Source of the DNA: Candidatus Bathyarchaeota archaeon
GTDB lineage: Archaea; Thermoproteota; Bathyarchaeia; Bathyarchaeales; Bathycorpusculaceae
Reading direction: 5' to 3'
DNA: 64,000 nucleotides
Assembly (NCBI GenBank): GCA_963828195.1
Contig: CAWHDT010000005.1
Location: 480,001 to 544,000 of the forward strand
A program made the position numbers and the translations under genes. The notes below the pieces were generated by a model, which was given only the letters and a program-made list of their open reading frames with translations, was not told where the DNA came from and ran no database searches. The stretch's first letter is position 1. Each line of letters starts with the position of its first letter. Shown one piece after another: positions 1-21,986 of the stretch.

Positions 1-1422
1 GGTTTCTCGGTAGATGACGATTGGCTTGCTAAGTTTTACTTTTAAGCCTGCTTCCTGCATACGGTAAGCTGTGATTTCAAGGTGGAGCTCACCCATGCCT
101 GATAAGAGGAATTCGCCGCTTTCTTTATTCATGACGAAATGCAGGTTAGGGTCTTCCGTTGTAAGCTTATGCATGACTTTATCGAATAAAGGCAGGTCTT
201 TGACGTCTTCAGGCTCGACAGCTACGGTTACAACCGGGTCAGAAACGTATCTTAAGCCCTCAAACGAATGTACATCTGCACCTTCTTCAGCAACAGTTTC
301 GCCTACATGTATTGATGGTAAACCTGAGATTGCTCCAATGTTACCTGCTGGAACACGGTCAATAAGAACACGGTCAGTTGCCATACTCATGAAAACCTGT
401 TGAATAGTGCCTTTCTGGTTACTGCTTAACAGTTGGACAGTTTTTCCTCGCTCAACTGAGCCGCTGAAAATTCTGCCAATCGCAACAGTTCCGCTATGTG
501 GATCAACTTCAATGGTTGATATGCACATTAGCAAAGGAGCTTTAGGATCAACTTTTGCCATTCCTTGACCTGTCGGACTGTCAACGTCTCCTGGCCAAAT
601 CTGTGGCTGTCTATACGGTTGTGCTTCGTAGGGATTAGGTAAGTGTTTGCAGAACATATCCAAAATCGGTTCTGGCAGCGGCGCTTTTTTACTTAATTCA
701 TCAACTTTTCTTCCAACTTCTATTGGATCGCCAGTGTATGCGTCGATAATGTCTTGGAAAGTGACTTTCTTTAATTTCATATGATCAAGATTTAAACCCC
801 ATTTGTGCAGTGCAGAGCCGAACGCAACGCGGCTATCTTCTATTTTGACTTGCCAGTCTTGTTTGTGCTCTTTAGGCGCATACCGCTCAATTAAAGTGTT
901 TATTCTCAAGAGAATCTTAGCAAATTTCTTTTGGATCTCTTGAGGTGTAAGTTTGATTTCTTTTATTAACCGATCAACTTTATTGATGAATAGAATTGGT
1001 TTAACACGTTCTCGAAGGGCCTGCATCAAAACGGTTTCTGTTTGAGTCATGGGTCCTTCCACAGCATCTACAACCACAAGTGCACCGTCGACTGCTCTGA
1101 GACTTCTTGTTACAGCACCGGAAAAGTCAATGTGTCCGGGTGTGTCGATGAGGTTTATGAGGTAATCTTGATTATTGTATGTGTGGACTAAGCTGACGTT
1201 TGAGGCGAAAACGGTCATTTGACGTTTCTGCTCAAGATCCCATGAGTCGAGGAAAAGTTTTTGCCCAGCAGTTTGGGTGCTTATTATTCCTGCGGCTGCA
1301 AGTAAACTGTCGGCAAGTGTGGTTTTTCCGTGGTCCACATGTGCGATGATGCTGGTGTTCCTGATGAACATTGGAGTTTCCATCAACTTCACAATTTCGT
1401 CTGTTTGCCTATAACGCGCCAT
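1..1422 (-). CDS. fusA: Translation elongation factor EF-2 family GTPase (N-terminal part; runs off the window start)
   Basis: Manual reading of the minus strand from ATG at 1422: MARYRQTDEIVKLME..IIAHVDHGKTT (G1), EQKRQMT (G2), LIDTPGH (G3), FINKVDR (G4). Absent from the ORF track because the stop lies outside the window. Confidence 0.95.
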   Translation of the reverse strand, partial: MARYRQTDEIVKLMETPMFIRNTSIIAHVDHGKTTLADSLLAAAGIISTQTAGQKLFLDSWDLEQKRQMTVFASNVSLVHTYNNQDYLINLIDTPGHIDFSGAVTRSLRAVDGALVVVDAVEGPMTQTETVLMQALRERVKPILFINKVDRLIKEIKLTPQEIQKKFAKILLRINTLIERYAPKEHKQDWQVKIEDSRVAFGSALHKWGLNLDHMKLKKVTFQDIIDAYTGDPIEVGRKVDELSKKAPLPEPILDMFCKHLPNPYEAQPYRQPQIWPGDVDSPTGQGMAKVDPKAPLLMCISTIEVDPHSGTVAIGRIFSGSVERGKTVQLLSSNQKGTIQQVFMSMATDRVLIDRVPAGNIGAISGLPSIHVGETVAEEGADVHSFEGLRYVSDPVVTVAVEPEDVKDLPLFDKVMHKLTTEDPNLHFVMNKESGEFLLSGMGELHLEITAYRMQEAGLKVKLSKPIVIYRET

Positions 1423-1635
1423 ACTACTCAATCTCCATTTTCATGATGTTGGTAACTTTCAATGTATGTTTTTTAATTATATCTGGCATTTAGTGAACAC
1501 TCAAATGTGATAAACTACATGGAAAGCGAATTTGTAGCCTATTAACCTTATGGCAAACTTTCACAGAACCTTTCGGAAAAAAACAGGTGTGAATCGGGCT
1601 TTTTCGGGGTTTTTTCAAGGTTGATTTTTGCGCGA

Positions 1636-1812
1636 ATTTTTAAGTTGCGACTTTTGCCCTGTGAAAGTTGCGACTTTCCGCTCTGGGTCTTTGCGTTTTG
1701 GGTTGCTTTTTTGGTTTGGGGTTTGAAGGGCTTGGCGAGCTGCGACTTTGGGATGGGCGGAATGCGACTTTGAATGTTGACTCTATGTAGGCGACATTGT
1801 CGGATATGGGCG
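1636..1812. repeat. Dispersed ~180-bp element, copy 1 (four GTTGCGACTTT-like boxes)
   Basis: Boxes start at 1644, 1667, 1739 and 1761. Aligns by eye with 18819-18956 and 36321-36497. Confidence 0.9.
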
Positions 1813-1931
1813 AATTCTCAGCAGCAACCCAGAACCCAAACGTCACAGCTAAAACACCCAACAAACCTGCAGAGGCTTCATCGGAAAACTTGAGCACTCA
1901 GTGCGGATTTAGATTCACACTATAGAATGCA

Positions 1932-1979
1932 CAGCCTCCTAAGTTGGGGTCAAGGGTTCAAATCCCGCCTTGCCCGCCA
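1932..1979 (+). pseudogene. Degenerate 3' half of tRNA-Arg(CCT), att-like remnant
   Basis: cagcct-CCT-aagttgg...gggTTCAAATccc...gcccgCCA. No matching 5' acceptor strand upstream. Confidence 0.75.
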
Positions 1980-2152
1980 AGAGCCAATTTAGGCAATTTC
2001 AGCCAATTATGCGGCCTTCAAGTCCTCAACGAAATACTAAGAGCATCCATAATGTTTCCTGGCAACTATTTCTTCAACGTAATAATCCTTAACAAATCTA
2101 GGCTTAAATACCCGAAAATGACATTCCATAAACAACAGAAGATGAAGACCGG

Positions 2153-3019
2153 GTGCCTGCTTTAGAACTGAATAATATTTCTTCAGGTTATAATAAGCAG
2201 TTAGTGTTGCATGATATTAGCTTTAAACTGCAAGAGCCATCAATCTACGTTGTTTTAGGGCCAAACGGCGTGGGCAAGACAACTTTGTTTAGGACAATCG
2301 CGGGTATTCTGGAGCCATTTAGCGGCAATATTCTCCTTGACGGACAAAACCTAACTAGCTCACGTGAAGCCCGAAAAAAGCTGAGTTTCTTCTCCCAGAA
2401 CGCAATGCCTGAAGAGATGACAGTGTACCAGGCACTCAAGTTCTATTCCAACATGGAGGGCGGAGACCCAGACAAGGCAATTGAATTGCTCGACCTCGGC
2501 GAACTGAGGGATAAACGATTTTCAGATCTTTCTCAGGGACAAAAGAAGAGGGCGTCACTAGCGAAAGTGTTTTTGTGCGAAAGAGACCTCTACCTATTAG
2601 ATGAACCCACGGCAAATCTGGACCCCGTAGTTTCAAAAGAAATTCGTGATATTATATTAAAGCTAAGCAAGGACAAAATGATTCTGTACTCATCCCATAA
2701 TCTTTATGAAGCCACCGACATCGGCACTTACCTGATCCTAATCAAAAATGGCTCAGTTTCAACGTTTGATAAAATCTCAAACATCAAACCCAAGAATTAC
2801 CGTGTAGGCATCAAAACCCAAACGGACATAACAAAAATTGTCGATGCCAAACGCGAGGGCGACTACTACGTCTTAAGCGTATCCAGCCCTCAAGAAGCAG
2901 GACTTACCCTCAAAAAACTCGTTGAAAAAGGCGTCTTAGTTACCGAAATGCGCCAATTAGATAATCCATTGCAGGAACTATTTGAAACACCCAGCACTCA
3001 AAACACAGTGAGGGCATGA
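2153..3019 (+). CDS. ABC-2 type exporter ATP-binding subunit
   Basis: GPNGVGKT Walker A, LSQGQ signature, LLDEPT Walker B, SSH switch. Confidence 0.9.
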   Translation: MPALELNNISSGYNKQLVLHDISFKLQEPSIYVVLGPNGVGKTTLFRTIAGILEPFSGNILLDGQNLTSSREARKKLSFFSQNAMPEEMTVYQALKFYSNMEGGDPDKAIELLDLGELRDKRFSDLSQGQKKRASLAKVFLCERDLYLLDEPTANLDPVVSKEIRDIILKLSKDKMILYSSHNLYEATDIGTYLILIKNGSVSTFDKISNIKPKNYRVGIKTQTDITKIVDAKREGDYYVLSVSSPQEAGLTLKKLVEKGVLVTEMRQLDNPLQELFETPSTQNTVRA

Positions 3020-3022
3020 GAA

Positions 3023-3704
3023 ATGAACAATACGTTGGTTTTTGTAAAGCGTAGCCTCAACCTAAGTAAAATACTGGCGGGGGTGGGAGTGGGTCTTGCA
3101 GGCCTCGGGATCTTTGTGATATTTACCCTATCTCTTCTCGTGGGAAGTTCAAGTGCGGCGGTCTTTGTCCTTCCGGTCTCATTTATGTCTCTTGCGCTTC
3201 TAATTTTTGCAACCCCGGTTACACTTCTTTACGTTTATGATAAGAACAACGGTGTGTTGGAGTATTTGCTTTCTCTCGGGTGGAATCAAAGCGATATCTT
3301 CAAGCAATACCTGAAAGCCGCTCTCCTCCTTGCACTAATCCTCTTCACAGGCGAAGCCGCCGCGATTCTGATTGCAGGTGCCATTGCGGGGTTAATGGCG
3401 GTCTTTGCTTTGGATTTGTTGATGATGTTTCTAACGGCATTTATGGGTTTTTCAGTGGTTTCGTTGGTTACTGTGGCAATGATGGCTTTTAGCACGTTAC
3501 AGAAGCAACGAGTGGGCGCTAACACTCCTCTCGGCATGGCGATTGGCGTCCCGTTCATATTTCCCACCTTTTACCTTTCTTTCCCTCGGATTCAGCCCAG
3601 AACTGATAATTTACCTATTGCTTTGCACTTTAGCCGCTGCCCTGTCAGTTGCGTTGCTGCTTCTCTCAAGCAGGCTTATTAGAAGAGAAAAAATGCTACC
3701 CTGA
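3023..3704 (+). pseudogene. ABC-2 type permease, frameshifted near 3575-3582
   Basis: Multi-TM protein with a DKNNGVLEYLLS motif. The hydrophobic C-terminus (SLGFSPELIIYLLLCTLAAALSVALLLLSSRLIRREKMLP*) continues in another frame to TGA at 3704. Confidence 0.75.
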
Positions 3705-3789
3705 AAAGTTACTATTGAATTTCTTGCGCTTCACCAACTATGACGGTAAATATTCTGGCCACTTAGCGCATACCTACCCGAGGGTTAAG

Positions 3790-3818
3790 CGAGGGTTCAT
3801 AGCTATCCCCGCCCGCCA
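3790..3818 (+). repeat. Highly degenerate tRNA-Arg 3'-end remnant
   Basis: cgagggttca...ccccgcccgcca matches the T-arm and acceptor part of 4741-4789. Confidence 0.65.
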
Positions 3819-3860
3819 TTGCCTTTTCGGCTGCTTTCCTTTTGTAAAAGCGCTTAGAGT

Positions 3861-4352
3861 TCATTTAATGATGGAATTGAGGTAACTATGGTATTCTTTA
3901 ACGGCATCATCCGGAAAAGGGGTGACTACTACGATTTCTTTAACTTTGGCAAGTTCCCTGTCCAGCGAGTAGACAACGGTTGTACCTAGGCTTCTAGCAA
4001 GCGAAATCAGGTATCCGTCCCAAGATTCTACGTCATACGTCGAGGCGTAATCTAGAGCGTCTGTAGCCAGATGTGTCGAAATATGAGGATAAAGAGCGGC
4101 TGATCCAGATGTGAGGATTCCCTCCATTATCTTCTTGGCGGTTAATCTTGGAACTCTTAAGTATCGAGTAGTTATGTGGTAAGCTCCCAGAATGGAGGAA
4201 ACTGGAATTACCGCTCTCCTTTTTTCCTTTAATGCTTCTGAAAGAAAGGTTATGCTGTAATCTTTGAGAGGGTTCTCGAAACAGCAGGGAACCACAACGC
4301 CAATATCGACGACGCCTTCAGGACAAGCCAAGCTTTCTTCTCGCGTATTCAC
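3861..4352 (-). CDS. vapC: PIN-domain (VapC-like) toxin, copy 1; real start probably TTG at 4331
   Basis: N-terminal VVD, central SWDGY and C-terminal YSLDREL PIN motifs. Overlaps the upstream AbrB-type antitoxin. Confidence 0.85.
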   Translation of the reverse strand: MNTREESLACPEGVVDIGVVVPCCFENPLKDYSITFLSEALKEKRRAVIPVSSILGAYHITTRYLRVPRLTAKKIMEGILTSGSAALYPHISTHLATDALDYASTYDVESWDGYLISLARSLGTTVVYSLDRELAKVKEIVVVTPFPDDAVKEYHSYLNSIIK

Positions 4353-4611
4353 GGCTCATCCACTTCCAGCTTTCTGTAGACTGTTCAGTGAAAGCTTGTG
4401 CTTTAAAATTCCTTGAAAGGTTCTCCCAATCTTGCACTTTTTTTTCTACATCTTTTTTCAGTGGTTCAAGTATGACTCGTTGGCCATCGATTCGCAGTGT
4501 TATTTGTCCCCCTTGCTTAATTCCAAAAGTTTCTCTTACTCGGGCAGGCAACACCATCCTTCCCTGTTCAGCCACTTTTATGGCATTTTCCATCTTTACC
4601 ACCACAAACAA
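4318..4611 (-). CDS. vapB: AbrB/MazE-fold antitoxin, copy 1
   Basis: KVAEQGRMVLPARVRETFGIKQG swapped-hairpin signature. Confidence 0.88.
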   Translation of the reverse strand: MFVVVKMENAIKVAEQGRMVLPARVRETFGIKQGGQITLRIDGQRVILEPLKKDVEKKVQDWENLSRNFKAQAFTEQSTESWKWMSREYARRKLGLS

Positions 4612-4740
4612 TATCTTTCCTCAGGGCTATAAACTTTTTAACTCAGCAGTAACACCTTTTGGTTACTACATAGTCATTGCCGAATCGCTGTCATTTGATA
4701 TGGTAACGATATTGTTCGGCTTTTGAGATTAAATTGCATT

Positions 4741-4789
4741 CAGCCTTCTAAGTTGGGGGTCGAGGGTTCAAATCCCTCCCCGCCCGCCA
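4741..4789 (+). pseudogene. 3' half of tRNA-Arg(TCT) from anticodon arm to CCA, orphan att-like copy
   Basis: cagc-ctTCTaa-gttg anticodon arm, gaggg-TTCAAAT-ccctc T-arm, cccgccc-g-CCA. No D-arm or 5' acceptor strand. Confidence 0.85.
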
Positions 4790-4913
4790 CGAATACACCA
4801 CGCCCAGTGAGAGGGTTTTACATGCGTTTTCTGGAAGAGTAGATTTTTCTATGAAATGCCTCTGTTAATCCTTCATCTTTTTATAGTTATGTGTCGAGTA
4901 GAACGCGATACTC

Positions 4914-6938
4914 TTGTCTGTTAAGTTCAAAGCCAATAGCGAGGGTCAACAACCCGATTCATTAATTTTCAATTCTAATGATAATATTTGTGAAAAATGC
5001 ACTCCGAATAAAGCTGTCGAATCATTCACAAAAAAAAGTGACACACCCAAAACGCAGCCGCCCCCCGCAAAAAACGTTGAGAAGAAAATGCGGAAAAGGC
5101 GCTTGTCCGAATTATCAAATGCAGGTTCGACCCAAAGTTTTGAGCTTGAAGAGGATACAACAAATGGAAAAGTTACGCACAAGTATTTTTGCAGTTTTTC
5201 CGATCCTTACGACATAAAACGACTAATTGAAACTAAGTCATTTTCAAATTTTGAAAGTTTCAGGCTGCATTTGGAAGCCCGCGAAATGAAGCGCTCCGCC
5301 CAAATTGATAGATTAATTTCTGCGGACTCTCTGCGAGCGAAAATAGTGCCATACAGTTTTCAGATGCAAATTGCTCTTCAAGTGATAAACGAAATGAAGG
5401 GAAACGCTATACTTGCTGATGAAGTTGGCCTCGGCAAAACAATCGAGGCTGGCCTTATCATGAAAGAACTGATTTTAAGAGATGAAATAAACTCAATTCT
5501 AATTGTAGCTCCTAAAAGTCTGTTGTCGCAGTGGAAAACTGAAATGACTGAGAAATTTGGGGAAAACTTCTCTATAGCCAATAACCATAAAGTGGATCTG
5601 TGTACCGCCAAGAGAATAATTTGTTCACATAACCTTATTGCAAGGAAATATGATGAGTTTGCAAGTAGAACTTGGGATTTAATTGTAGTAGATGAAGCTC
5701 ACGCTTTTAGAAATCCTCACAGTAAGGGACGAAGCTGCTTGGCGGGGCTTAGCAAAAATCATTTCTTGCTTCTTACCGCCACACCCTTATGCAATAAACT
5801 AACCGACTTGTACAGCATTGTGGATTTAATTCAACCAGGCATCTTTGATAGTGAACGCTTGTTCGTTTCTCGATTTGCTGAAGACTCAAAGAGCCGGGTG
5901 GTAAAGCCGGAGGGAGCATTGCAGTTAAGGCAAATACTTCAAAATGTCATGTGCCGCACTCGAAGAGAACAAACCGGCATGTCGTTCACAAAACGATACG
6001 TTGACTCCAGAACACTCGAGGCCGACGAAAGAGAACGCGAATTCATTGACAAAGCCACCGAATACCTAAGAGACATTTACAAAAATAATTTCAAAACAAT
6101 TGAAACCTTAATGAGGGAAAATCCAACCAGAAAAATAACCGATTCCCAAAGCAAAGCAATCCTAGTCTTTCAGGCAATTGCTCTTCAGCAGTCATTTTCA
6201 AGTTCCCCCGAAGCCTCAATCGAATCATTACTAAGGAGACAGCAGCGCTTCCCTTCAGAAATCCAAGCTACAAATAAACTGATTGAAATTGCAAAACAGG
6301 CCAAAAGCTCAAAAATTAAACTCCTAAAACAGGTCCTCAATGAAATCCCAAATGAGCAAGCGCTAATATTTTGTCTAAGGAGAATTACAGCTCACAAGCT
6401 TAAAGAAATGCTATATCAGGAATTCGGCAGAGCCGCCGTCTTTTTAGGTGATATGAGCCAATGCGAAAGAGACAGCGTGATTTCATCATTCAAAAAAGGC
6501 GAAGTCAAATACCTCATCGCCACTGACTCTGCAGCAGAAGGATTGAACCTTCAGAATTGCTGTGTAATGTTCAATTATGATTTGCATTGGAACCCCATGA
6601 AAATCGAGCAGAGAATCGGGCGAATCCACAGATACAAACAGGACCGCGACGTCACTGTCTTCAACCTGAGCATAAAAGACACCATCGACGACTATGTCCT
6701 TCATATTCTATACCAAAAAATCGACTTATTCACCATGACTATCGGCAAAATGGAAACTGTTTTAGCTGAATTGAAAGAAGGGTCGCAGGACATTCAAAAA
6801 ACAATCATGGCCATTTTACTAAGAAGCAATTCCCACATTGACATTAGACGAGACCTCGAAAAACTTGCTGCCGACTTGAGCGTTTCGCGGAAAAATCAAG
6901 AGTTAGCAGAAAAATTTTCGCAAGGCGTTCTTGATTGA
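4914..6938 (+). CDS. SNF2/RapA-family SF2 helicase (YqhH-like)
   Basis: LADEVGLGKT, VVDEAH, LTATP, AEGLNLQ and WNPMKIEQRIGRIHR motifs. Confidence 0.92.
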   Translation: MSVKFKANSEGQQPDSLIFNSNDNICEKCTPNKAVESFTKKSDTPKTQPPPAKNVEKKMRKRRLSELSNAGSTQSFELEEDTTNGKVTHKYFCSFSDPYDIKRLIETKSFSNFESFRLHLEAREMKRSAQIDRLISADSLRAKIVPYSFQMQIALQVINEMKGNAILADEVGLGKTIEAGLIMKELILRDEINSILIVAPKSLLSQWKTEMTEKFGENFSIANNHKVDLCTAKRIICSHNLIARKYDEFASRTWDLIVVDEAHAFRNPHSKGRSCLAGLSKNHFLLLTATPLCNKLTDLYSIVDLIQPGIFDSERLFVSRFAEDSKSRVVKPEGALQLRQILQNVMCRTRREQTGMSFTKRYVDSRTLEADEREREFIDKATEYLRDIYKNNFKTIETLMRENPTRKITDSQSKAILVFQAIALQQSFSSSPEASIESLLRRQQRFPSEIQATNKLIEIAKQAKSSKIKLLKQVLNEIPNEQALIFCLRRITAHKLKEMLYQEFGRAAVFLGDMSQCERDSVISSFKKGEVKYLIATDSAAEGLNLQNCCVMFNYDLHWNPMKIEQRIGRIHRYKQDRDVTVFNLSIKDTIDDYVLHILYQKIDLFTMTIGKMETVLAELKEGSQDIQKTIMAILLRSNSHIDIRRDLEKLAADLSVSRKNQELAEKFSQGVLD

Positions 6939-8398
6939 GCACGGAATATTCGAACTCAAAGATTCGTACATTTATTGGATCGTTCGTTAAATCCAAAAAT
7001 GGAGAGTTAACTGAGCAGTCAAACGAAGTTTTTAGAGTAAAATACCCAAACCAAACAAGCAGCACAGAGTACACTTATGAGCCTTCAGTAGCACGAGAGA
7101 AAAAAATTCTTTTAATGGCGCCGGGAAGTCCAACGTTCCAGCACATTTTGGATGAATGTTTAGAAAACGGTGTTCTATGCCAAATTAAAGTAAACCCGAA
7201 AGGCGAATTGGAAACACTACTCAAAAACAACTTTAAAGATTCACCTTTTGATTGCCAAGATTGCCAAAAAGTGACAGCTGGCGATAAATCGTTTAGTGTT
7301 TGCGAGAAAACCCAACAGTGTTACCACCAAATAAACAATGGAAAAATCGTTTCAATAAAAGTTATTAAAAAAGAGCCAGCGAGATATTATCGACTTTATT
7401 TCTCCGCAGCATTCCGCAACAAATCGAGGCCAAGGAATGAAGAGTTGATTACATTTTTGATGGATGAAGCTGGAAATATTGTTGACGCTGAGGATTTTTA
7501 CGGAAAAAATATTTTGGATAATGAAGCGTTAGAGATTCAAGATTTTAAGGCGAAGCTTAACCCAGAGGTGTTTGATGAGTTAAAGTCTGTTGCAGACAAA
7601 AAAATGGCGGAAATTATAAAGGAAAAGTTGGTTCTCTTTGATTTACCTCTCAGTAAGGAGAAGGATGCTAAACTAAGAAGCTTCGATAAAAGACTTCGGC
7701 GGGAACGTCTTGAACAGGCAATTAATAGTAAATACGATTTTGACTCGCAGAAGTGGCAAGCTACCTACGAAGCGCTCATGAGAAAAGAAGAAGAATCACT
7801 AGCAACCTGCATAGACATAAAATTCATCAATCTGCTTGTAATCAACACAAATAAGGTTACCTTTGAAATAAGCCTTGATAACAACGCAACCGTACATTCA
7901 TCAATCATCTTAGGCATTAATCATACCGCGGAAGTTAACTGCCCAATCTGCCGAAATGATTTCTCTGAAGGTTATGCAACCGAAGATTCGTTCTACTGTT
8001 GCGGAAACTGCATTAGACAATCCATTGAGACAGGAAAAATTTATTCAAAAAAAGTGGCCCTAAAACTGGACGAAACATTGAATGAATATTTTGAGCAAGA
8101 CGAAGGTTTTGTCTGCTCAGTCTGCGGCAAGAGACACAGTCGCTTACTGGAATTCAAATGCAGCTATGACGATTCAAGCGTATGCATTTTTCATTATGAT
8201 TATTGCGATTTTTGTGGTGAAATTTTCTCAAAACTTAACTTAACTTCCACGCATGAATTCCAGCGAAAACTATGTCCAAAACACACCGTCAAATGTGAAA
8301 ACTGCAAAGCAGTTATTGGAGTTGACGAAGTCAAGGTTTGTCAAGTCACTGGCGAAAGACTTTGTGTCAACTGCATGGATAAGTCGAGGATGCATTAA
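6935..8398 (+). CDS. Helicase partner protein with coiled coil and Cys-rich multi-Zn-finger C-terminus (YqhG-like position)
   Basis: Overlaps the helicase stop. Many CxxC/CxxH pairs (CQDC, CPIC, CGNC, CSVC, CDFC, CPKH, CENC, CVNC). Confidence 0.8.
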   Translation: MSTEYSNSKIRTFIGSFVKSKNGELTEQSNEVFRVKYPNQTSSTEYTYEPSVAREKKILLMAPGSPTFQHILDECLENGVLCQIKVNPKGELETLLKNNFKDSPFDCQDCQKVTAGDKSFSVCEKTQQCYHQINNGKIVSIKVIKKEPARYYRLYFSAAFRNKSRPRNEELITFLMDEAGNIVDAEDFYGKNILDNEALEIQDFKAKLNPEVFDELKSVADKKMAEIIKEKLVLFDLPLSKEKDAKLRSFDKRLRRERLEQAINSKYDFDSQKWQATYEALMRKEEESLATCIDIKFINLLVINTNKVTFEISLDNNATVHSSIILGINHTAEVNCPICRNDFSEGYATEDSFYCCGNCIRQSIETGKIYSKKVALKLDETLNEYFEQDEGFVCSVCGKRHSRLLEFKCSYDDSSVCIFHYDYCDFCGEIFSKLNLTSTHEFQRKLCPKHTVKCENCKAVIGVDEVKVCQVTGERLCVNCMDKSRMH

Positions 8399-8399
8399 G

Positions 8400-9333
8400 A
8401 TGGGGACTTTGAGGTTTAACGGGGTTTTAGAAGAAATTAAAGAGCGATACCCAAACATCGATTTAATGCAGTTTCTACAACAGAAACTTCAGATTCCCGA
8501 CTACAAGGCAGAAAAATTGGCTGCCCGTATAGAAAAACAATTCTTCCAAAAAGAAACAAACAAAACTGAGCGAAAATATGTAAGAACAGTGTCGCAAAAA
8601 AACAGTAAATCCATGATTCCTTCAGAAACACGCGCTTATTCAGTTGATTGTCTTTCGGGGAAGGAATTTGAGTTTTTTATTGAGTGGCTGTTTGAAGAAC
8701 TAGGGTACGAGGTCCATTCGGAAAAGCATTCAACTTGTTTCGGGGTTGACTTTGTGGCTGCAAAGGATGGCGAGATTGTTGCCATTCATGCCCGAAGGTA
8801 TCCTAAAACTTACATGGTATCCGATTCTATTCTTTTAATGTCGCAGAACGCAAAGTGTACCTTTGGGTGTCAGAGGTCGATTGTATTAATCACCGCATAT
8901 TTTACGCCCCAAGCAATAGATGACGCTAAAAGGTTAAATGTCGAACTTTGGGACAAAGATAGCCTTACATGCAAAATTGATGAGGTAAGGAAAAAAGCTA
9001 CAGTGAAAGGGCAGTCTCGTTTTCCCCAGTTTACGGGGTCGCTTGCTCAAACTCTTTTAAAGTTTGAAGAAGCAGGAGATTTCATTATAGAACCCAAGGC
9101 AGCGGGAAAATTCGATTTGCATTTGACGGGAGTAAAATTTCCCTCTTTTAACCTTTCAAGTCCATGCTAATGAAGTCACTCGATGCGTCTACAGAATTAA
9201 AAACAACGGACCAGTTGGAGAACATGACGGCACAGTTTTGATTAACAGCGAGCGCGACAACAAAAGAATCGGCCCAAATGACACCAATGCATACGCATCA
9301 ATAATTCAGTATCTTGAGACATTTTTCACCTAA
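8400..9333 (+). CDS. Mrr-family (type IV restriction) endonuclease-like protein, frameshifted near 9140
   Basis: GKEFEFFIEWLFEELGY..GVDF..VAIHARRY..LITAYFTPQA..VELWD is the Mrr_cat pattern. The C-terminus continues in another frame to TAA at 9333. Likely start is ATG at 8400. Confidence 0.75.
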
Positions 9334-9461
9334 CCACCGATCACTGTAGCGGAGCTCAAATCTCTTCGTGCGCTTCCGTTTGCTCAATTTTGCCCATTGA
9401 AATTGTAAAATGCGGTGAAGGCTCTGCAAGGTTTTTATTTGCTCCTTGCAATGTAAAGTTG

Positions 9462-10349
9462 ATGTCAGCTAAACAGTTTTTCATAGACCGCTACGCGGAG
9501 CTCGGTTGGGCATTTCGGGAAGTTAACCTGAAGCAGTCAATCCGAATAAACCAAACCAACGTTAAAGGAAAAAATCTTCCCGACAGGCTCCGCGGCTTAG
9601 GCGTCGAACTTGAGAAAATCCCTTTTCTGGCGGCGGGGTGGTGGGTTGGAGAATCCAAAGTTTCCGTCGGCGCCACAGCCGAGTACCTACTGGGCATGTA
9701 CTCTGTTCAGGAGGCAGCAGCGCAGATTCCCGCCGCGCTCTTCACTGCTTTAAGAGGCAAAACGGTGCTTGACGCTTCAGCGGCGCCGGGCGGAAAAACC
9801 GTTCAGCTGGCGGACTTGATGGAGAACAGCGGAGCCATAATTGCTTTGGATGAAAACAAGCAGCGGTTGGTGGCAATGGCGAACCATTTGGAGCGCTGCC
9901 ACGTCAGCAACACAATCGTTTACAATCTGGATGCCAGGCAAGCTGCAACACTGAACCGCGTCTTTGACCGCATACTTTTGGATGTTCCCTGCTCGGGCAA
10001 CTTTGCCTCTGACAGCCAATGGCTTTACCGCAGAACCCTCGCGGACGTGGAGCGGAACGCGAAGGTGCAGCGGGAAATTCTCTCTGAAGCTACAAAATGT
10101 TTAGCGGCTGATGGCGAAATGGTTTATTCTACTTGTTCACTGGAGCCTGAGGAAGACGAGTTGAACATGGATTGGGCTGTCAAAAACTTGGGGCTACAAA
10201 TTCAACCCATTGACTGCATCGGGGTAGAAGGGTTAACTGAGGTTTTCGGCAGAAAACTTGACGCTCAAATTGCAAACTGCAGAAGAATCTGGCCACAAAA
10301 AACACAGGGCTTCTTCGCGTGCAAACTGAAAAAGGCGGCGGCGAAATGA
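9462..10349 (+). CDS. NOL1/Nop2/Sun RNA m5C methyltransferase
   Basis: AAPGGKT, LLDVPCSG and YSTCS catalytic motifs. Confidence 0.92.
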   Translation: MSAKQFFIDRYAELGWAFREVNLKQSIRINQTNVKGKNLPDRLRGLGVELEKIPFLAAGWWVGESKVSVGATAEYLLGMYSVQEAAAQIPAALFTALRGKTVLDASAAPGGKTVQLADLMENSGAIIALDENKQRLVAMANHLERCHVSNTIVYNLDARQAATLNRVFDRILLDVPCSGNFASDSQWLYRRTLADVERNAKVQREILSEATKCLAADGEMVYSTCSLEPEEDELNMDWAVKNLGLQIQPIDCIGVEGLTEVFGRKLDAQIANCRRIWPQKTQGFFACKLKKAAAK

Positions 10350-10822
10350 GACCTTACGAAGTTTTTGCTTCCCGTTTCGGCGGCAGAGTCCAGTTTAACC
10401 CAGAGTTTATTCTTGAAAAAAATCAACGCTTCTACCTTTTGAATCCGCGCCTGAAAAAGGTTGGGCAAGAAGACTTTTTTTACGCTGGCTTGTACCTTGG
10501 CAAAGTGGGCAAAAACGGGGGTTTCTTTCCGAGCTTCAACCTGCTGAACTTGCTTGTTGATGTTGCGGCGAACAAAATTGTCGTCGATCGGAAGGCAGCT
10601 TGGCTTTTCATCTGCGGAAGAGATGTTTTTAGGGAGGGGATTGTGAAGGTGATGGGTTCTAAGCGGAGAGGCGAGGCGGTTTTGGTTCTGAATGAGTTTG
10701 GTGAGTGTCTTGGATTTGGCTCTTTAATGGATGGCTTAAATGAAGGTGGTGGTAAGGTTGCTGTCAGGAATGTGCTGGATGTCGGCGATTTTCTGCGGAG
10801 AGAACGAAGAGGAAACTTCTAA
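10346..10822 (+). CDS. Nip7-like PUA-domain ribosome biogenesis protein
   Basis: Translationally coupled to the Nop2 homologue. WLFICGRDVF..LVLNE..CLGFG..DVGDFLRRE is a Nip7/PUA pattern. Confidence 0.75.
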   Translation: MRPYEVFASRFGGRVQFNPEFILEKNQRFYLLNPRLKKVGQEDFFYAGLYLGKVGKNGGFFPSFNLLNLLVDVAANKIVVDRKAAWLFICGRDVFREGIVKVMGSKRRGEAVLVLNEFGECLGFGSLMDGLNEGGGKVAVRNVLDVGDFLRRERRGNF

Positions 10823-10979
10823 CTCTATAAGCTGGTTCGGCTGAACGCAAAAAAAATTGGGTGACAGCTTGATTGCCCCAGAAATTTTTGTTTTGTGTAG
10901 TGAACGTTTATTCAAACAATTTAGGGATAAACTTATATATGTTTATGTTTTAAGTGGATTCTCAAACATATGATTTAAT

Positions 10980-12452
10980 ATGGTGAAAGTCATGGATGAA
11001 CAAGTAAAGAAAGCAATTGAAACCCTCAAATCAAACAATATTCGATGGGTGCACTCTGCATTCGTCGATGTAAGAGGAATACTTCAAGACATGGTTCTGC
11101 CCGCCCGAGAATACATAAGCGGCTCAGCATTCACCGACGGCATCGGCTTCGACGGATCTTCAGTACGCGGCTTCAAATCAATCGAAGAATCCGACATGAT
11201 CTTTATGCCTGACGCCAAAACCTTATCGATAATGCCCTGGGTAACTGATGAGGCGCAGAAAAGCGCAATCGTACTCGGCGACGCATTGGAAGCTTCAGGG
11301 GGAAAAGAACCCTCCGTTGCTTGCCCAAGAGGCTACGTTGCAAAAAGAGCAATTAAAGCGGCCAAGGACATGGGGTACACTGGAATTTTCGCTCCTGAAC
11401 TTGAACATTTCGTGTTTACGTCAATTGACCCCACCAAAATGACCTGGGACCTTTGGGCAGCTCCAAAAAGCGGAGAAGGAGATGCTTGGGGTGCGCCAAG
11501 GGTTGTGCCAAACTCGCCAGAAGTAACTCCCGGCGGCTTCATACTCAGACCTAAAGAAGCTTACTATCGAACTCCGCCCGAAGACACAACGGTTGAGTAC
11601 CGGAACGAGGTTTCACAGGTTTTGGAAGATAACTTTGGCTTAACAATCGAGAAGCATCACCACGAAGTAGCAACTGTCGGCCAAGTAGAAATCGACTACA
11701 AATACGGTGAACTGCTGGAAACCGCTGACCGAGCACTCTTCTTCAAGTTCGTCGCCAAAAACATCGCTAAGAAACGCGGCTTAATCGCCACTTTCATGCC
11801 GAAACCCATCTACCTTGACAACGCCAGCGGCATGCACGTTCACTCAAGCATATGGAAAGACGGGAAAAACGCAATGTATGACGCAGAAGATGACTACTGT
11901 GAACTCAGCCAAACTGGCAGATACTACGTCGGAGGCATACTTGCCCACGCTAAAGCTTTAACTGCAGTGTGTTGCCCAACTGTGAGCAGCTACAAACGCT
12001 TAGTGCCAGGCTTTGAAGCGCCAATTTACGTTATGTGGTCCAGAGCCAACCGATCTGCACTTGCCCGCATCCCTATGTACTATAAGGGTCCTTCTCATCA
12101 GGCGCAAAAAAGAGTTGAGTACCGAGGCGTTGACCCATCATGCAACCCATATCTGGCATTCGCATGCATTATGATGGCTGGTTTCGACGGAATCAAAAAG
12201 AAACTTGATCCAGGCGACCCAGTTGACGAAGACGTTTACAAACTAAGCAAAGCAAAACGCAAAGAACTAGGCATAAAAGAGCTCCCCACCACGCTCAAAG
12301 GCGCGCTAGATGAAATGGAAAACGACGACGTCATAAAAGAAACCTTAGGCACCCACGTGTTCGACGCATTCATTGAACTTAAAACAAACGACTGGAACCA
12401 ATACTGCCTCTACGTTTCGCCTTGGGAAATAATGAAGTACCTCGACTACTAA
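10980..12452 (+). CDS. glnA: Glutamine synthetase type I (with GSI-beta-like insertion)
   Basis: FDGSS, HHEV..GQVEI, FMPKP..NASGMH, RLVPGFEAP, NRSALARIP and EYRGVDP motifs. Confidence 0.95.
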   Translation: MVKVMDEQVKKAIETLKSNNIRWVHSAFVDVRGILQDMVLPAREYISGSAFTDGIGFDGSSVRGFKSIEESDMIFMPDAKTLSIMPWVTDEAQKSAIVLGDALEASGGKEPSVACPRGYVAKRAIKAAKDMGYTGIFAPELEHFVFTSIDPTKMTWDLWAAPKSGEGDAWGAPRVVPNSPEVTPGGFILRPKEAYYRTPPEDTTVEYRNEVSQVLEDNFGLTIEKHHHEVATVGQVEIDYKYGELLETADRALFFKFVAKNIAKKRGLIATFMPKPIYLDNASGMHVHSSIWKDGKNAMYDAEDDYCELSQTGRYYVGGILAHAKALTAVCCPTVSSYKRLVPGFEAPIYVMWSRANRSALARIPMYYKGPSHQAQKRVEYRGVDPSCNPYLAFACIMMAGFDGIKKKLDPGDPVDEDVYKLSKAKRKELGIKELPTTLKGALDEMENDDVIKETLGTHVFDAFIELKTNDWNQYCLYVSPWEIMKYLDY

Positions 12453-13252: not shown

Positions 13253-14617
13253 ATGAGAAATTTCAAAGATGCTGTTTGGAAAGAGAGCGTAACAAAAGTA
13301 ATTCAGGAATTACGTGAACAAGAAATCAAGTTCATCAGACTTCAATTCACCGACATAAATGGCATGTTAAAGAATTTGGCTGTAAGCGCAAAAAATATTG
13401 AAGCAATATTTGAAAATGGCCAATCTTTTGATGGATCCTCCATAACAGGTTACAGGCCCATCGAGGAGTCAGACATGGTGCTGTACCCTGACCCCACTAC
13501 CTTCGCGGTTCTGCCTTGGAGACCGAAAGAAAAGTCTTCTGCTAGGCTGCTCTGCGACATTTACACTCCGCAAAACAAGCGTTTTGAAGGGGATCCAAGG
13601 TACGTTCTTGAACGAGCCATTGAAAAAGCGTCCAAAGCAGGCTTCACATTCATGTGCGCGCCTGAACTTGAGTTTTTCATAGTTGAAGAAAGCGAGACCG
13701 GCGGCTTGCCAACACCCATTGACATGGCTGGCTACTTTGACTTTCATCCTGGAGACTTAACAGACGACCTCAGACGGGAAATCGCTGACACGGCGGAGGC
13801 TTTCGGTATTGAAATCGAGATTTCGCATCATGAAGTTGCGTTGGGGCAAAATGAAATTGACTTCAAATACGATGAAGCCTTGAAGACGGCTGACAGAACC
13901 CTTACAATGAAAATGTGCGGGAAAGTGGTTGGTGCACGAAACGGCTACATAACCACGTATATGCCTAAACCGTTCTCAGGCATAAATGGTTCAGGAATGC
14001 ATACTCACCAAAGCCTCTGGAACAAAAACGTGTCGCAAAACCTCTTTTACGAAGACAACGAAAAGAACGGCTTCCTATCAGACCTAGCAAGAAACTTTAT
14101 AGGTGGACAATTAGCACACGGACGCAAAATGTGCGCAATACTTGATTCATGGCCAAACAGCTTCAAACGTTTAGTCCCAGGCTACGAAGCACCAGTTTAT
14201 CTTGCTTGGGCACACAAAAACCGTTCACCGCTTATCCGAGTGCCAAACTTCGGCGGAAGAAAAAACGCTGCCCGATGTGAAATCCGCTGCCCCGACGGAG
14301 CAGGAAACCCGTACCTGCAGTTTGCAGTGCTTTTAGCCGCGGGTTTGGATGGCATCAAGAACAGGATTGACCCAGGCGACCCAGTGGAGCTAAATGTTTA
14401 TCAGATGACCTATGAAGAACGAAAAGAACGAAACATCGTTTCACTACCAGAATCCCTGCAAGAGGCGCTCGATGAGCTTGAGACCAGTGATTTGATGCGT
14501 GAAACACTTGGCGAAACCGCATTTGACAATTTCCTGCGAGAAAAACGCAGAGAATGGGACCTCTACCGCACACAAGTCACAGAGTGGGAAGTCAACCGCT
14601 ACATAAAACGGCTTTAA
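13253..14617 (+). CDS. glnA: Second glutamine synthetase-family protein (GSI-alpha-like)
   Basis: FDGSSI, HHEVALGQNEI, YMPKP..NGSGMH, RLVPGYEAP and NRSPLIRVP motifs. GGTGA SD. Confidence 0.92.
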   Translation: MRNFKDAVWKESVTKVIQELREQEIKFIRLQFTDINGMLKNLAVSAKNIEAIFENGQSFDGSSITGYRPIEESDMVLYPDPTTFAVLPWRPKEKSSARLLCDIYTPQNKRFEGDPRYVLERAIEKASKAGFTFMCAPELEFFIVEESETGGLPTPIDMAGYFDFHPGDLTDDLRREIADTAEAFGIEIEISHHEVALGQNEIDFKYDEALKTADRTLTMKMCGKVVGARNGYITTYMPKPFSGINGSGMHTHQSLWNKNVSQNLFYEDNEKNGFLSDLARNFIGGQLAHGRKMCAILDSWPNSFKRLVPGYEAPVYLAWAHKNRSPLIRVPNFGGRKNAARCEIRCPDGAGNPYLQFAVLLAAGLDGIKNRIDPGDPVELNVYQMTYEERKERNIVSLPESLQEALDELETSDLMRETLGETAFDNFLREKRREWDLYRTQVTEWEVNRYIKRL

Positions 14618-15844: not shown

Positions 15845-16009
15845 AACCTCTGGCGAATCATTAGGAACCTGCAATTTGCTCTCCCTACAGCACTGTATGC
15901 GCACACTTGAACCTCGAACTATTTAACAGTTATTCCCCATGAAAACAAATCAAACTTGCACTTAAAAATTCAAAACTCGACCTTACAAAAATAAAAAAAG
16001 TGGTTTAAA

Positions 16010-16279
16010 TTAAAGAGGAGTGATTTTCACTATGTTTCTTTTTTCAAGTCTTCGCAGCGCATCTAGACACTCATCTTTTTTCTCGCCGGTAATGTTTAGG
16101 TTGAGCATTATGTCCCTAACTGAAACTTCTGCTTTACCGAAATTTTCGTGTCGCTTGTACAGATGTTGAACAATGGATTTTTCAAGTTTCCCGCATCGCC
16201 AAGTAGTGTTGCGAATTAAAACGACGATGGTTCGGACAAGTATCTGCTCCTTTGATTTTCTTCCTCGCGGATCGCCCAT
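16010..16279 (-). CDS. Hypothetical basic protein, possible wHTH
   Basis: C-terminal ECLDALRRLEKRNIV resembles a wHTH recognition helix and wing. Confidence 0.6.
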   Translation of the reverse strand: MGDPRGRKSKEQILVRTIVVLIRNTTWRCGKLEKSIVQHLYKRHENFGKAEVSVRDIMLNLNITGEKKDECLDALRRLEKRNIVKITPL

Positions 16280-16359
16280 CTCTCCCCACCGCAATAATTA
16301 AGCTACATCATGGTTTTTAAACATTGTTACCTCTTGGGCTTAAAGTTGTAGACACGAAT

Positions 16360-16809
16360 TTACAGGGTTTTTTTAAGGTAAAAACCGTGCTTTTTGCCGT
16401 AGTATTTTTCTAGTTTACTTATTTTCTGGTACCCAGTGTTTTGATAGAGCTTCAACGCGGATGCATTGTCTTCGCGAACTTCCAAGTGGCATTCGCCAAT
16501 GCTTTTTTGTTTAAGAATTGTTTCTGTTTCTTTCAGCAACTTGCTAGCGATACCTTTTCGCCTATAGTTCGGCGCCACATTTATTGTTATTATATGCCCG
16601 TAAACTGTATTGTTTTCTATTTCTACCTGCGCTATTATAAATCCTGCTATGTCATTGTTTGTTTTGGCTGCCAACGCAATTGTGTTGTAATCCGTGAGCA
16701 AGTAGGCTATTTGCCGTTTCGTGAAGGCTTCCTCGTCAAAGCAAAGCGCTTCAATTTCACATAGCTTATCAAGTAGCTTAAGGGAAGCGGTTTCAATTTT
16801 TATTTCCAT
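16360..16809 (-). CDS. rimI: RimI/Ard1-type N-terminal acetyltransferase
   Basis: HIITINV..YRRKGIA, LEVREDN..ALKLY..GY..YY motifs. Confidence 0.9.
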   Translation of the reverse strand: MEIKIETASLKLLDKLCEIEALCFDEEAFTKRQIAYLLTDYNTIALAAKTNNDIAGFIIAQVEIENNTVYGHIITINVAPNYRRKGIASKLLKETETILKQKSIGECHLEVREDNASALKLYQNTGYQKISKLEKYYGKKHGFYLKKTL

Positions 16810-16829
16810 TTTTTATTATCTTAGAATAA

Positions 16830-17978: not shown

Positions 17979-18133
17979 GCTGAGGTTTCAAAAAAACACT
18001 CCCCGCTAAATTAGTCACATTAACAAAACACTGTCGAACTGTCAATGCGCAAACAAAAGTCTGCGCTCAATAAACATTAAGTAAGAATTATAAAAAGAAC
18101 AAAAAAGGATTAGATTTTTTTTAGACTTTAAGC

Positions 18134-18730: not shown

Positions 18731-18818
18731 CCTAGATTTGTGGTTCTAAGGAAAGGTACATGTTCTCTGCACTTAAGTTTTTCGCTTTGCGGATTTTTTG
18801 AGTTGCGTTTTTTTGGGG

Positions 18819-18956
18819 ATTTTTAAGTTGCGACTTTTGGGCTGGCGTAAGTTGCGACTTTCCGCTCTGGGGCTTTGTGTTTTGGGTTGTTTTTTTGGTT
18901 TGGGGTTTTAGGGGCTTGGCGGGTTGCGACTTTGCTACGGGCGGTTGCGACTTTTT
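18819..18956. repeat. Dispersed element, copy 2
   Basis: GTTGCGACTTT boxes at 18827, 18851, 18923 and 18944 with the same T/G-rich spacer. Confidence 0.9.
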
Positions 18957-21880: not shown

Positions 21881-21986
21881 AACATATTTCTCCTGTTCAA
21901 CCGCCTAAATACGAGCGGATGGTTTTAAGCGTTCCGCAGATCAAAATATCAGCACAAAATGAAGGTGGAATAAGCAGTAAGTATTT

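Follow-up and report, generated by a model that had tools for sequence, protein, structure and literature searches.

How did pieces of a tRNA-Arg gene come to lie between blocks of other genes, and did those blocks arrive as units? The window analyzed here, a stretch of 64,000 nucleotides from the genome of a Candidatus Bathyarchaeota archaeon (G000 below), raises this question because such pieces separate an ABC transporter, a toxin-antitoxin pair and a helicase operon. An earlier note on this DNA proposed an integron-like accretion of integrase-less cassettes that recombine through a tRNA-derived attachment (att) core and are mobilized in trans. We consider it quite probable that serial insertions by tyrosine integrases into a copy of tRNA-Arg(CCT) left the fragments behind as att scars, that the integrases were lost and that the cargo was captured. 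We favor this reading because members of the same genus have arrays of the same repeats at an intact tRNA gene, with integrases or integrase remnants at the att sites.

The three fragments that started the discussion are all present on the plus strand, at 1932-1979 (frag1), 3790-3818 (frag2) and 4741-4789 (frag3). We aligned them to the tRNA-Arg(CCT) gene of the relative G012, in which this gene is uninterrupted, and found 51 of 55 positions identical for frag1 (gene positions 21-77), 24 of 28 for frag2 (50-77) and 47 of 48 for frag3 (30-77). The parent had been named as tRNA-Arg(TCT), which was wrong: the fragments are the 3' part of the tRNA-Arg(CCT) of the genus. The anticodon of frag1 is CCT, and that of frag3 reads TCT through a single C-to-T change. 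A search for more orphan copies, as the note had suggested, turned up frag4 (39182-39230; 30/36, gene positions 42-77), frag5 (40142-40154) and, elsewhere in G000, an 18-nt minus-strand copy at C1:4851-4868. Frag5 is a 13-nt plus-strand remnant of an att anticodon arm (CAGCCTTCCAAGT) that matches the tRNA gene at 11 of 13 positions and the start of frag3 at 12 of 13; the remainder of this att was probably removed in a single deletion.

These tRNA-derived repeats make up families D6 and D7 of the window; they are direct repeats, nearly identical to the 3' end of a tRNA gene, and they bound inserted DNA. Frag3 covers tRNA positions 27/30 to 76, its anticodon and T arms are intact and it ends in CCA; it is 97.9% identical to the resident tRNA gene of this genome at C1:424906-424952. 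Frag2 belongs to a junction that we call type C (3776-3818, plus strand), in which a left arm, ACCCGAGGGTT..., is followed by the tRNA acceptor end and CCA. Frag4 is a type-B junction on the same strand, with the left arm GGGTGATATCTC..., then the T arm, the acceptor end and CCA. All five acceptor-bearing fragments in G000 terminate in CCA, and the resident gene ends ...CCCGCCCGCGT.

Upstream of frag1 there is a trace of the rest of a tRNA gene. The D-arm word CTCAGTACGGAT, with at most one mismatch, has a single site in the 64 kb, at 1897, which is 35 nt upstream of frag1. We annotate 1897-1979 (plus strand) as a decayed pseudo-tRNA-Arg(CCT), made up of the D-arm-like word (1897-1908), about 20 unrelated nucleotides and frag1, in which the T stem and acceptor are broken and the CCA end is kept. 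Neither ARAGORN nor Rfam calls a tRNA at 1897-1979. In agreement with the note, there is no intact tRNA in the whole window either: ARAGORN reports none, Rfam reports none at gathering score, and the best score of the tRNA model is 17.8 bits at 4730-4778, where the cut-off is 29. The end of the array in the window therefore has a pseudo-tRNA only and no intact target tRNA. The intact tRNA-Arg(TCT) is at C5:745681-745758, and C1 carries a tRNA-Arg(CCT) that has an intron at position 9/10. The copy in the window appears to be a target that decayed because a working, intron-bearing gene sits on another contig.

The fragments fall into two islands. Island 1, of about 7.9 kb (1560-9427), lies between the EF-2 and RsmB genes. 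Its conserved left anchor is the 5' part of the aEF-2 gene (1-1431, minus strand; Pfam GTP_EFTU and EFG_III), which has 77-92% DNA identity in relatives. The island is missing in G016, where homology ends near 1558 and restarts at 9428 and the corresponding gap is 228 bp. The EF-2/RsmB gap measures 3.4-8.5 kb, with different content, in G019, G021 and G077-G081. Island 2, of 4.6 kb (36303-40892), lies between the upstream region of the SecE-NusG-L11 operon and a D-aminoacyl-tRNA deacylase gene. It is missing in all five relatives examined, in which the flanks abut or are at most about 65 bp apart. Both islands are insertions relative to kin, and the fragments are not confined to this place. 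Each island has at its left edge a plus-strand copy of a 177-nt dispersed repeat, D3, with four GTTGCGACTTT boxes in the copy of island 1 (1636-1812; 36321-36497 in island 2). Neither island has a terminal att with native flank at its right end.

A Pfam scan bore out the cargo of the three blocks of island 1 as it had been described. Cassette 1 (1980-3775, plus strand) holds an ABC ATPase (2153-3019; ABC_tran) and a 219-aa protein (3023-3682) with no family match that looks membrane-like by eye. Cassette 2 (3819-4740, minus strand) is a vapBC pair, with a PIN toxin at 3861-4352 and a MazE/AbrB-type antitoxin at 4318-4611. The third segment (4914-9170, plus strand) has an SNF2 helicase (4914-6938), a 487-aa protein of no assigned family (6935-8398) and an Mrr-like nuclease (8253-9170). 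PADLOC matches this segment to DrmD, BrxH and ZorD, plus the Mrr end of ZorD, and we take the three genes to be candidate defence cargo.

Island 2 is built in a similar way. Its first cassette (36513-39137) has a 533-aa ORF of no assigned family (36513-38114, minus strand) and an ORF that is GNAT-like by Pfam (38478-39137, plus strand). It is followed by a second vapBC copy (39231-40119, minus strand; PIN 39273-39764, antitoxin 39730-40023) and by a last cassette (40157-40800, minus strand) with a 140-aa PIN toxin (PIN-140, 40157-40579; Pfam PIN) and a small ORF upstream of it. By eye, this small ORF resembles an RHH-type antitoxin. PIN ORFs of 140 aa with the same Pfam footprint adjoin att sites in G002 and G051, and the cassette of G051 aligns to that of the window in DNA. 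The sequence after frag5 appears homologous to the flanks of the PIN-140 cassettes in G002 and G051, an assignment that is less certain than the others. The type-B arm of frag4 is also found in G047, G075, G060, G062 and G051.

The same repeats occur in congeneric Bathyarchaeia downstream of an intact tRNA-Arg(CCT) (for example G077:C4, G012:C11 and G075:C3), where they bound arrays with varying cargo. Arrays of two to five repeats, spaced 0.7-7 kb apart, are present in many congeners, among them G012, G047, G060, G062, G075 and G051. In these relatives the final repeat of an array has a native, non-CCA flank (GCAT, GCTT or GCCT), and the inner repeats have the CCA of the element. Together with the identities of the fragments, these arrays uphold the core of the earlier proposal, that tRNA-derived att repeats bound separately acquired packets of DNA. 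Some packets recur between genomes: the third cassette of G012 is the first cassette of G045, with 97.5% identity over 3572 nt, which could be due to common descent.

Cassette 1 has a counterpart of the same layout at G077:C4, where tRNA-Arg(CCT), the ABC cassette (80.5% identity) and a type-C att follow one another; in G020:C84 the tail of the ABC cassette is again followed by a type-C att. Homologues of the ABC pair are also found in six relatives (G009, G023, G003, G004, G019:C5 and G016:C8; 70-79% identity) without att flanks, so these copies are uninformative on mobility. Allowing up to three mismatches, the type-C att 28-mer matches ten sites, spread over 8 of 61 congeneric genomes. Around unrelated cargo, type-C cassettes have a conserved left arm and a right arm that is short and likewise uniform (AnAGCCnATTTnGGCAATT-like in 7 of 11), and we saw no integrase stump in them.

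At G077:C4 the resemblance extends further to the left, with a D3 copy, a live tRNA-Arg(CCT), the ABC cassette and the type-C att in the layout of island 1. D3 has 24 matches in the genome, the copy at 1636-1812 included. Among 80 relatives, 5 have it upstream of EF-2, and in G077:C4 and other relatives it precedes an intact tRNA-Arg(CCT). We considered D3 as a structured RNA and rejected it: alifold of 23 copies gave -12.8 and -2.9 with no convincing fold, and Rfam gave no match.

If integrases made these insertions, where are they? The note had seen no integrase in the window, and none of the 70 ORFs matches PF00589. Comparing the 11 ORFs of no assigned family in or beside the cassettes with Pfam at E up to 1 did not reveal a hidden integrase. 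Elsewhere in the genome, where the note had proposed to look for a tyrosine recombinase, there are five six-frame PF00589 matches, none of them in or next to the window. With the integrases of G016 and G007 as tblastn queries, G000, whose assembly is 96% complete, yielded no cognate integrase; the only hits were a relative of 27-29% identity on C3 and, on C9, a fragment of 80 residues.

In the relatives, integrases do stand at the att sites. PF00589 is found in 2 of the 98 ORFs in or beside their arrays (42 and 56 scanned), and these are the tRNA-adjoining integrases of G016 and G007. In G016, a frame of 370 codons spans the att core when the circular junction is made in silico, and in G014 an Int(C)-like and an int(N)-like half are about 10 kb apart. 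This arrangement is that of a split, SSV-type integrase acting at tRNA-Arg(CCT) in G016, with the same split layout in G014. An unsplit, pNOB8-type integrase sits intact at the att copy in G007 and G089 (430-433 aa), and remnants of it are left in G135 (119 codons), G022 (45) and G060 (21). Since intact and remnant integrases occur at flanks of the frag3 type, loss by decay is documented for that family.

Frag3 itself carries such a flank. We take its right arm (4790-4830, plus strand) to be what is left of the flank on the integrase side of a pNOB8-type element: frag3 and the arm together (4741-4830) are 86-94% identical to att-plus-flank stretches in G047, G135, G137 and G089, and in G089 an intact integrase comes after this flank. 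We did not detect a remnant of the integrase protein beside frag3, where the C-terminus of the G007 integrase scores 21 against the three adjoining frames (control 98). Integrase loss by decay would explain the SNF2 segment, as the flank of its att matches the integrase-side flank in relatives. The segment lacks a right-hand repeat, and homologues of the SNF2-Mrr operon in G001, G020 and G012 are without att flanks, so it may not be a cassette.

The vapBC cassette (0.9 kb) is a different case. Its two copies are 98.9% identical over 835 nt (copy 2 at 39232-40065), and among the 120 genomes of the genus that we searched no other has it. Both copies begin immediately past the CCA of an att (frag2 and frag4), and their left arms are unrelated. 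Copy 1 is flanked by frag2 and frag3, and copy 2 by frag4 and the 13-nt frag5. The cassette contains the PIN toxin and the antitoxin only; it is free of an integrase and has att on both sides, although at the right end of copy 2 an unrelated stretch of 22 nt precedes an att remnant of 13 nt, and the two-sided att there depends on this short match. In G051 the type-B arm, core and PIN-140 cassette run on uninterrupted, which is an empty site for vapBC copy 2. Copy 2 occupies a site that this other species has in uninterrupted form, so it is plausible that vapBC moved between the two arrays as an integrase-less unit, served by an integrase in trans. The earlier suggestion that the cassettes as a class were mobilized in trans is not borne out for the whole array and stays plausible for vapBC, the one cassette with this signature of near-identical copies at att cores and an empty site. 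Four public sequencing runs compared with window positions 1-12000, following the suggestion to look for circular junctions in reads, gave only short, low-depth contigs, none of which bridged an empty site or a circle. The sole joint in a read contig, 4653/4715, is the vapBC copy of island 2.

These observations can be read in another way, in which no cassette ever moved without its own integrase. Each block would be the stump of a separate integrase-bearing element that had its integrase module deleted afterwards, and vapBC copy 2 would have arisen by homologous recombination or gene conversion between the two arrays on att repeats of 22-50 nt. The graded series of integrases by the att in relatives, from 430-433 aa down to 119, 45 and 21 codons, favors this, as do the match of frag3 and its flank to integrase-side flanks and the lack of a cognate integrase in G000. 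A review, in the part available to us, likewise presumes that integrated elements without an integrase have lost it, and states that elements in tandem undergo homologous recombination (PMC8371274). However, the type-C cassettes have uniform arms around unrelated cargo and no integrase stumps, and random deletions are not expected to stop at one same place. In addition, vapBC copy 2 starts exactly at the att CCA with a left arm unrelated to that of copy 1. We therefore think it rather unlikely that decay is the whole explanation.

Two other readings would do without serial integration, and we give both very little credence. The note had offered frag3 as the 3' half of a split tRNA, and a working, trans-spliced tRNA-Arg(TCT) would fit its perfect anticodon and T arms, its encoded CCA, an AT-rich box immediately upstream of it and the presence of a tRNA-splicing endonuclease gene in the window (30571-31125). 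We consider this extremely improbable, as 5'-half and D-arm words with up to five mismatches hit nothing in the genome beyond complete tRNA genes and the resident gene on C1, and intact genes for both tRNA-Arg(TCT) and tRNA-Arg(CCT) exist at the sites given above. The leader of frag3 also belongs to the vapBC cassette and is repeated at 40091-40119, where it lacks a full tRNA part, and equivalent fragments bound cassettes in relatives. A split or permuted tRNA likewise gained no support from the genome search with 5'-half and D-arm words or from folding of the flanks. The CCA ends, which the resident gene does not encode, could instead suggest random retro-copies of mature, CCA-tailed tRNA, or the resemblance could be due to chance. 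Yet in relatives the CCA belongs to the element-borne att, even beside intact integrases, and the fragments begin at differing tRNA positions and have family-specific left arms that are common across genomes. Chance similarity is excluded by shuffling: the T-arm word GGGTTCAAATCCC, with up to two mismatches, occurs 8 times in the window (exactly at 1954 and 4764), where 1.57 are expected, and none of 100 shuffles reached 8. Retro-copying or chance can hardly be the source of these fragments.

Returning to serial insertion at a tRNA-Arg(CCT) copy, we picture the following course. Small integrative elements would have a copy of the tRNA-Arg(CCT) 3' part for an attachment site, and tyrosine integrases would insert them one after another into a copy of the gene, each insertion adding a partial tRNA repeat between the blocks of cargo. 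The target copy here would then have decayed to a pseudogene. With the integrase genes gone, the cargo (the ABC transporter, vapBC and the SNF2-Mrr defence-like operon) would be captured chromosomal DNA. Recombination between D3 copies may have brought both arrays to their present sites, which are not at a tRNA gene.

A wider reading, which we put forward tentatively and think possible but somewhat doubtful, is that the genus runs a tRNA-anchored, integron-like cassette system. Its families of integrase-less cassettes would keep a tRNA-Arg(CCT) core of 12-50 nt between conserved arms (types A, B and C) that are roughly 20-45 nt long, and their cargo would vary freely among toxin-antitoxin pairs, ABC transporters, histidine kinases, enzymes and genes for defence. 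Integrases of passing elements of the SSV and pNOB8 types would capture them serially beside the tRNA and shuffle them within and between species, and D3 would relocate whole arrays to new places in the chromosome.

For these uncultured and abundant soil archaea, one tRNA gene would serve as the landing pad from which variable gene islands are built, and toxin-antitoxin, defence and transport genes would accumulate behind it in small packets. If it is true that cassettes move without an integrase of their own, this would be an archaeal counterpart of shuffling of the integron or CIME type. Orphan tRNA pieces, which tRNA finders miss, can serve in annotation as markers of the seams of islands.

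Gene capture by tRNA-targeting elements with SSV-type (suicidal, split) and pNOB8-type integrases was reportedly described in archaea by She et al. 2001. The islands agree with it in that foreign DNA lies between direct repeats derived from the 3' end of a tRNA gene and that elements which lose their integrase remain in the chromosome; in the relatives, integration splits the integrase gene (G016, G014) or the gene sits beside the att (G007, G089). They differ in their host, a soil member of the Bathyarchaeia, in their blocks of 0.9-4.6 kb with one to three genes, in the dead copy of the target tRNA and in the position of the arrays away from the working gene. Suicidal integrases are described, in the portion of the source that we drew on, as met in geothermal habitats (PMC7253208). 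The split integrases of G016 and G014 place this suicidal type in mesophilic soil archaea.

In bacteria, CIMEs are att-flanked elements that have no integrase and can be mobilized by that of a relative, and they accrete at the tRNA-linked att of ICEs. The cassettes described here are in another domain of life and have no conjugation context, and their mobilization is deduced from a pair of copies and a single uninterrupted site. Krupovic et al. 2010, 2019 are said to have covered elements integrated in tandem at a shared att, and as in those cases reuse of the site leads to arrays of elements separated by att repeats. The tandem arrays described in the accessible part of one account consist of whole elements with integrases or casposases (PMC6563490), and set against that description the arrays here are runs of integrase-less cassettes of one to four genes.

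Integrons, including archaeal ones (10.1101/2022.02.06.479319), capture small cassettes serially at one recombination hot spot. Serial capture of small gene cassettes is found here too, with cargo that is likewise rich in toxin-antitoxin and defence genes. The array is nevertheless not an integron, as it has no IntI and no attI, its boundaries are direct tRNA-derived repeats where integrons have folded attC, and its cassettes, of one to four genes that may lie on either strand, have spacers of their own. Gene capture at a tRNA is a known route, and what we see in these archaea looks like an unusually cassette-like form of it.

Three tRNA-Arg 3' fragments lie where the earlier note had placed them, all on the + strand. 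In alignments with the tRNA-Arg(CCT) gene of G012, a relative in which this gene is uninterrupted, the first (1932-1979) matches at 51/55 positions (gene positions 21-77), the second (3790-3818) at 24/28 (50-77) and the third (4741-4789) at 47/48 (30-77). A repeat search for more orphan copies did find them, namely a fourth + strand fragment at 39182-39230 (30/36 to the same gene) and a 13-nt att remnant, also +, at 40142-40154. The T-arm word has 8 sites in the window against 1.57 expected, and 8 was reached in 0 of 100 shuffles. The D-arm word CTCAGTACGGAT, allowing up to one mismatch, has a single site in the window, at 1897, 35 nt upstream of the first fragment, and this fragment is the tail end of a whole tRNA gene that has decayed. 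No intact tRNA is present in the window, as the earlier note said: ARAGORN calls none, and Rfam gives no match at gathering score across the 64 kb (the tRNA model scores 17.8 bits on the third fragment, with a cut-off of 29). The parent had been taken to be tRNA-Arg(TCT). However, the anticodon is CCT in the first fragment, and the TCT of the third differs from it by one C-to-T substitution, which makes tRNA-Arg(CCT) the parent.

The source genome (G000) is 2.83 Mb in 9 contigs with 44% G+C, the window being C5:480001-544000, and its nearest public relatives by EF-2 are MAGs from soil, peat and bog labelled Bathyarchaeota or Bathyarchaeia. ARAGORN reports 46 tRNA genes in it, including the intact tRNA-Arg(TCT) gene to be located (C5:745681-745758, with a different acceptor stem), and tRNA-Arg(CCT) is not among them. 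We found that gene at C1:424848-424953, where 424906-424952 is a 97.9% match to the third fragment. It has a ~29-nt hairpin between the 5' acceptor strand and the D arm, its leader pairs with its trailer, CCA is not encoded, and one compensatory acceptor-stem change (in G008) backs the fold. Its upstream flank is common to G003, G016, G002 and G024, so this is the syntenic gene, and presumably the working tRNA-Arg(CCT). The split-tRNA 3' half that had been offered as an alternative is not supported, because the genome contains no orphan tRNA 5' half.

Among 16 tRNA-Arg(CCT) genes of the genus, six lack an intron, four (including that of the source genome) carry it at position 9/10 and six in the D loop. 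On visual inspection, the 9/10 intron has a covarying stem (AAGAG/CTCTT vs AAAAAG/CTTTTT), and the D-loop intron of G013 contains a ~15-nt copy of the variable-loop and T-stem part of its own tRNA. Since ARAGORN gave only 46 tRNAs, missed the tRNA-Arg(CCT) gene and proposed some implausible introns (951 nt in one tRNA-Leu call, for example), many tRNA genes of the source genome probably carry non-canonical introns.

The fragments sit in two islands. For the first we compared the window with G016, which has the top EF-2 DNA identity (92%) among the relatives compared. From EF-2 to RsmB there are 228 bp in G016 and ~7.9 kb in the window, where homology breaks off near 1558 and returns at 9428. 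For the second, the SecE-NusG-L11 upstream region abuts the D-aminoacyl-tRNA deacylase gene, or lies no more than ~65 bp from it, in 5/5 relatives, and therefore 36303-40892 is a second insertion. A terminal repeat with native flank is missing from both islands.

Each island opens with a copy of D3, a 177-nt dispersed repeat with 24 matches in the genome (including the query copy, 1636-1812); further copies in the window are at 18820-18995 and 36321-36497. D3 has four GTTGCGACTTT boxes arranged as two pairs. Because it has no conserved RNA fold and no Rfam match, it looks like a DNA-level element for protein binding or recombination. It precedes EF-2 in 5/80 relatives and the tRNA-Arg(CCT) gene in several others, and one copy marks an inversion junction within the window, which makes recombination between D3 copies a reasonable route by which the arrays may have arrived beside EF-2 and SecE. 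The relative G077 (contig C4) has D3, an intact tRNA-Arg(CCT), the ABC cassette (80.5% identity) and a type-C repeat, which is the layout of the first island with a live tRNA. At the same chromosomal site as that island, G080 (contig C5) has, in this order, EF-2, D3, a HicAB pair and a tRNA fragment (positions 10-76).

The inverted segment, 15985-18811, holds a GNAT gene, an LPG-synthase-like gene and an SSB gene, and is inverted relative to G016, G019, G021 and G013; its junction has a 1.5-kb PIN-containing insert besides the D3 copy. Another segment, 21964-27997, has no counterpart in G016 at the syntenic position. It contains a further vapBC pair (22022-22710), a flavin reductase, an NHL-repeat protein with six 126-nt tandem repeats (23834-24624) and an AAA_15 ATPase. 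Two glutamine synthetase genes (10980-12452 and 13253-14617) lie 0.8 kb apart, and at 38130-38617 a frame ahead of a GNAT-like ORF resembles, by eye, the C-terminal part of a papain-like peptidase with its start missing.

Many congeners have 2-5 extra copies of the tRNA-Arg(CCT) 3' part downstream of the intact gene at a spacing of 0.7-7 kb (examples are G012, G047, G060, G062, G075, G051, G008, G067, G002 and G019). Their cargo varies: PAS and other histidine kinases, ABC transporters, Fic, AbiV, vapBC, HicAB, AbiE, an Eco57I-like enzyme, glycosyl transferases, oxidoreductases, and TetR and Rrf2 regulators. Only 2 of 98 scanned ORFs in or beside these arrays match the integrase family, both beside the tRNA, in G016 and G007. 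We distinguish three left arms. Type A is the tRNA sequence from about position 27 on (first and third fragments), type B has the arm GCGGGTGAAATCTCC (fourth fragment) and type C the arm ACCCGAGGGTTCAAACGAGGGCTCATAGCTATC (second fragment). Eight of 61 genomes contain type C, with 10 sites in all, and a similar ~20-nt right arm opens 7 of 11 type-C cassettes.

The vapBC cassette, which consists of a PIN toxin and antitoxin only, is present in both islands at 98.9% identity over 835 nt and is absent at the DNA level from all others among 120 genomes of the genus. Both copies start right after the att CCA, with different left arms (type C at 3776-3818, type B at 39182-39230), and both finish with a common left arm ...GATTAAATTGCATT followed by att sequence. 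This right att is complete at 4741-4789; at 40142 only 13 nt are left, behind 22 unrelated nt. In G051 the type-B arm, the core and the cassette for a 140-aa PIN toxin are contiguous with nothing between, which is the uninterrupted form of the site filled by the second copy. The pattern fits a cassette that would leave as a circle and be re-inserted at a different att by an integrase acting in trans. Alternatively, the second copy could have come from recombination between arrays through their repeats. Public read sets gave short contigs only, none of them bridging. In relatives, the third cassette of G012 and the first of G045 are 97.5% identical over 3572 nt, with the flank upstream of the tRNA at 90%. 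This is consistent with step-by-step addition of cassettes at the tRNA-proximal end, and sharing by descent might also account for it.

In the window the SNF2-Mrr operon lacks a repeat on its right, and att flanks are absent around its homologues in G001, G020 and G012 and around the ABC pair in six other relatives. The operon (4914-9170) looks like a candidate defence operon of a split, ZorD-like kind: the best PADLOC families of its SNF2 helicase are DrmD, BrxH and ZorD, the nuclease end of ZorD is matched by an Mrr-like nuclease encoded separately, and a 487-aa protein without a known family lies between the two.

A 295-aa integrase C-part follows the tRNA of G016, and another repeat, 5.4 kb downstream, ends in the native flank GCAT and not CCA. 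Joined in silico as a circle, the ends give one 370-codon frame across the att core, the hallmark of the SSV type, and the predicted G016 integrase is of this split kind. G014 has int(C)- and int(N)-like halves ~10 kb apart. An unsplit integrase of 430-433 aa is found in G007 and G089 with its 3' end abutting att, and remnants of it lie beside att copies in G135 (119 codons), G022 (45) and G060 (21). The third fragment with its 41-nt right flank (4741-4830) is 86-94% identical to att-plus-flank stretches of G047, G135, G137 and G089, so the segment to its right is best read as a decayed element of the unsplit-integrase family. No protein-level remnant survives in the window. All five PF00589 matches of the source genome are outside it, which bears out the earlier note on the missing integrase, and none is a close relative of the G016 and G007 integrases (best 27-29% identity, plus an 80-residue fragment on contig C9).

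The window preserves a fossil array of scars that integrative elements left on a tRNA-Arg(CCT) copy which is itself dead. What the earlier note observed is borne out and added to, and its interpretation is supported in part: the tRNA-derived scars stand, the TCT parent does not, the split-tRNA alternative finds no support, and mobilisation of vapBC in trans is consistent with the pattern. In a narrow literature search, we did not find runs of 1-4-gene integrase-less cassettes at a tRNA in Bathyarchaeia; the portions consulted of one Bathyarchaeota paper mention only genomic islands and a provirus (PMC11697101). According to the passages cited here, it is established that archaea have both split and unsplit integrases, att repeats derived from tRNAs, and integrated elements that become trapped (PMC7253208; PMC8371274, which cites She et al. 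2001); integrated elements without an integrase presumably lost the gene (PMC8371274), and elements are also described as integrating in tandem at a single site (PMC6563490, PMC8371274). The array is thus of a known type, with a cassette-like flavour. The introduction of PMC7253208 describes suicidal integrases as found in geothermal habitats. The SSV-type split integrases here are from soil Bathyarchaeia (G016:C6, loci L015/L046, and G014:C1, locus L050).
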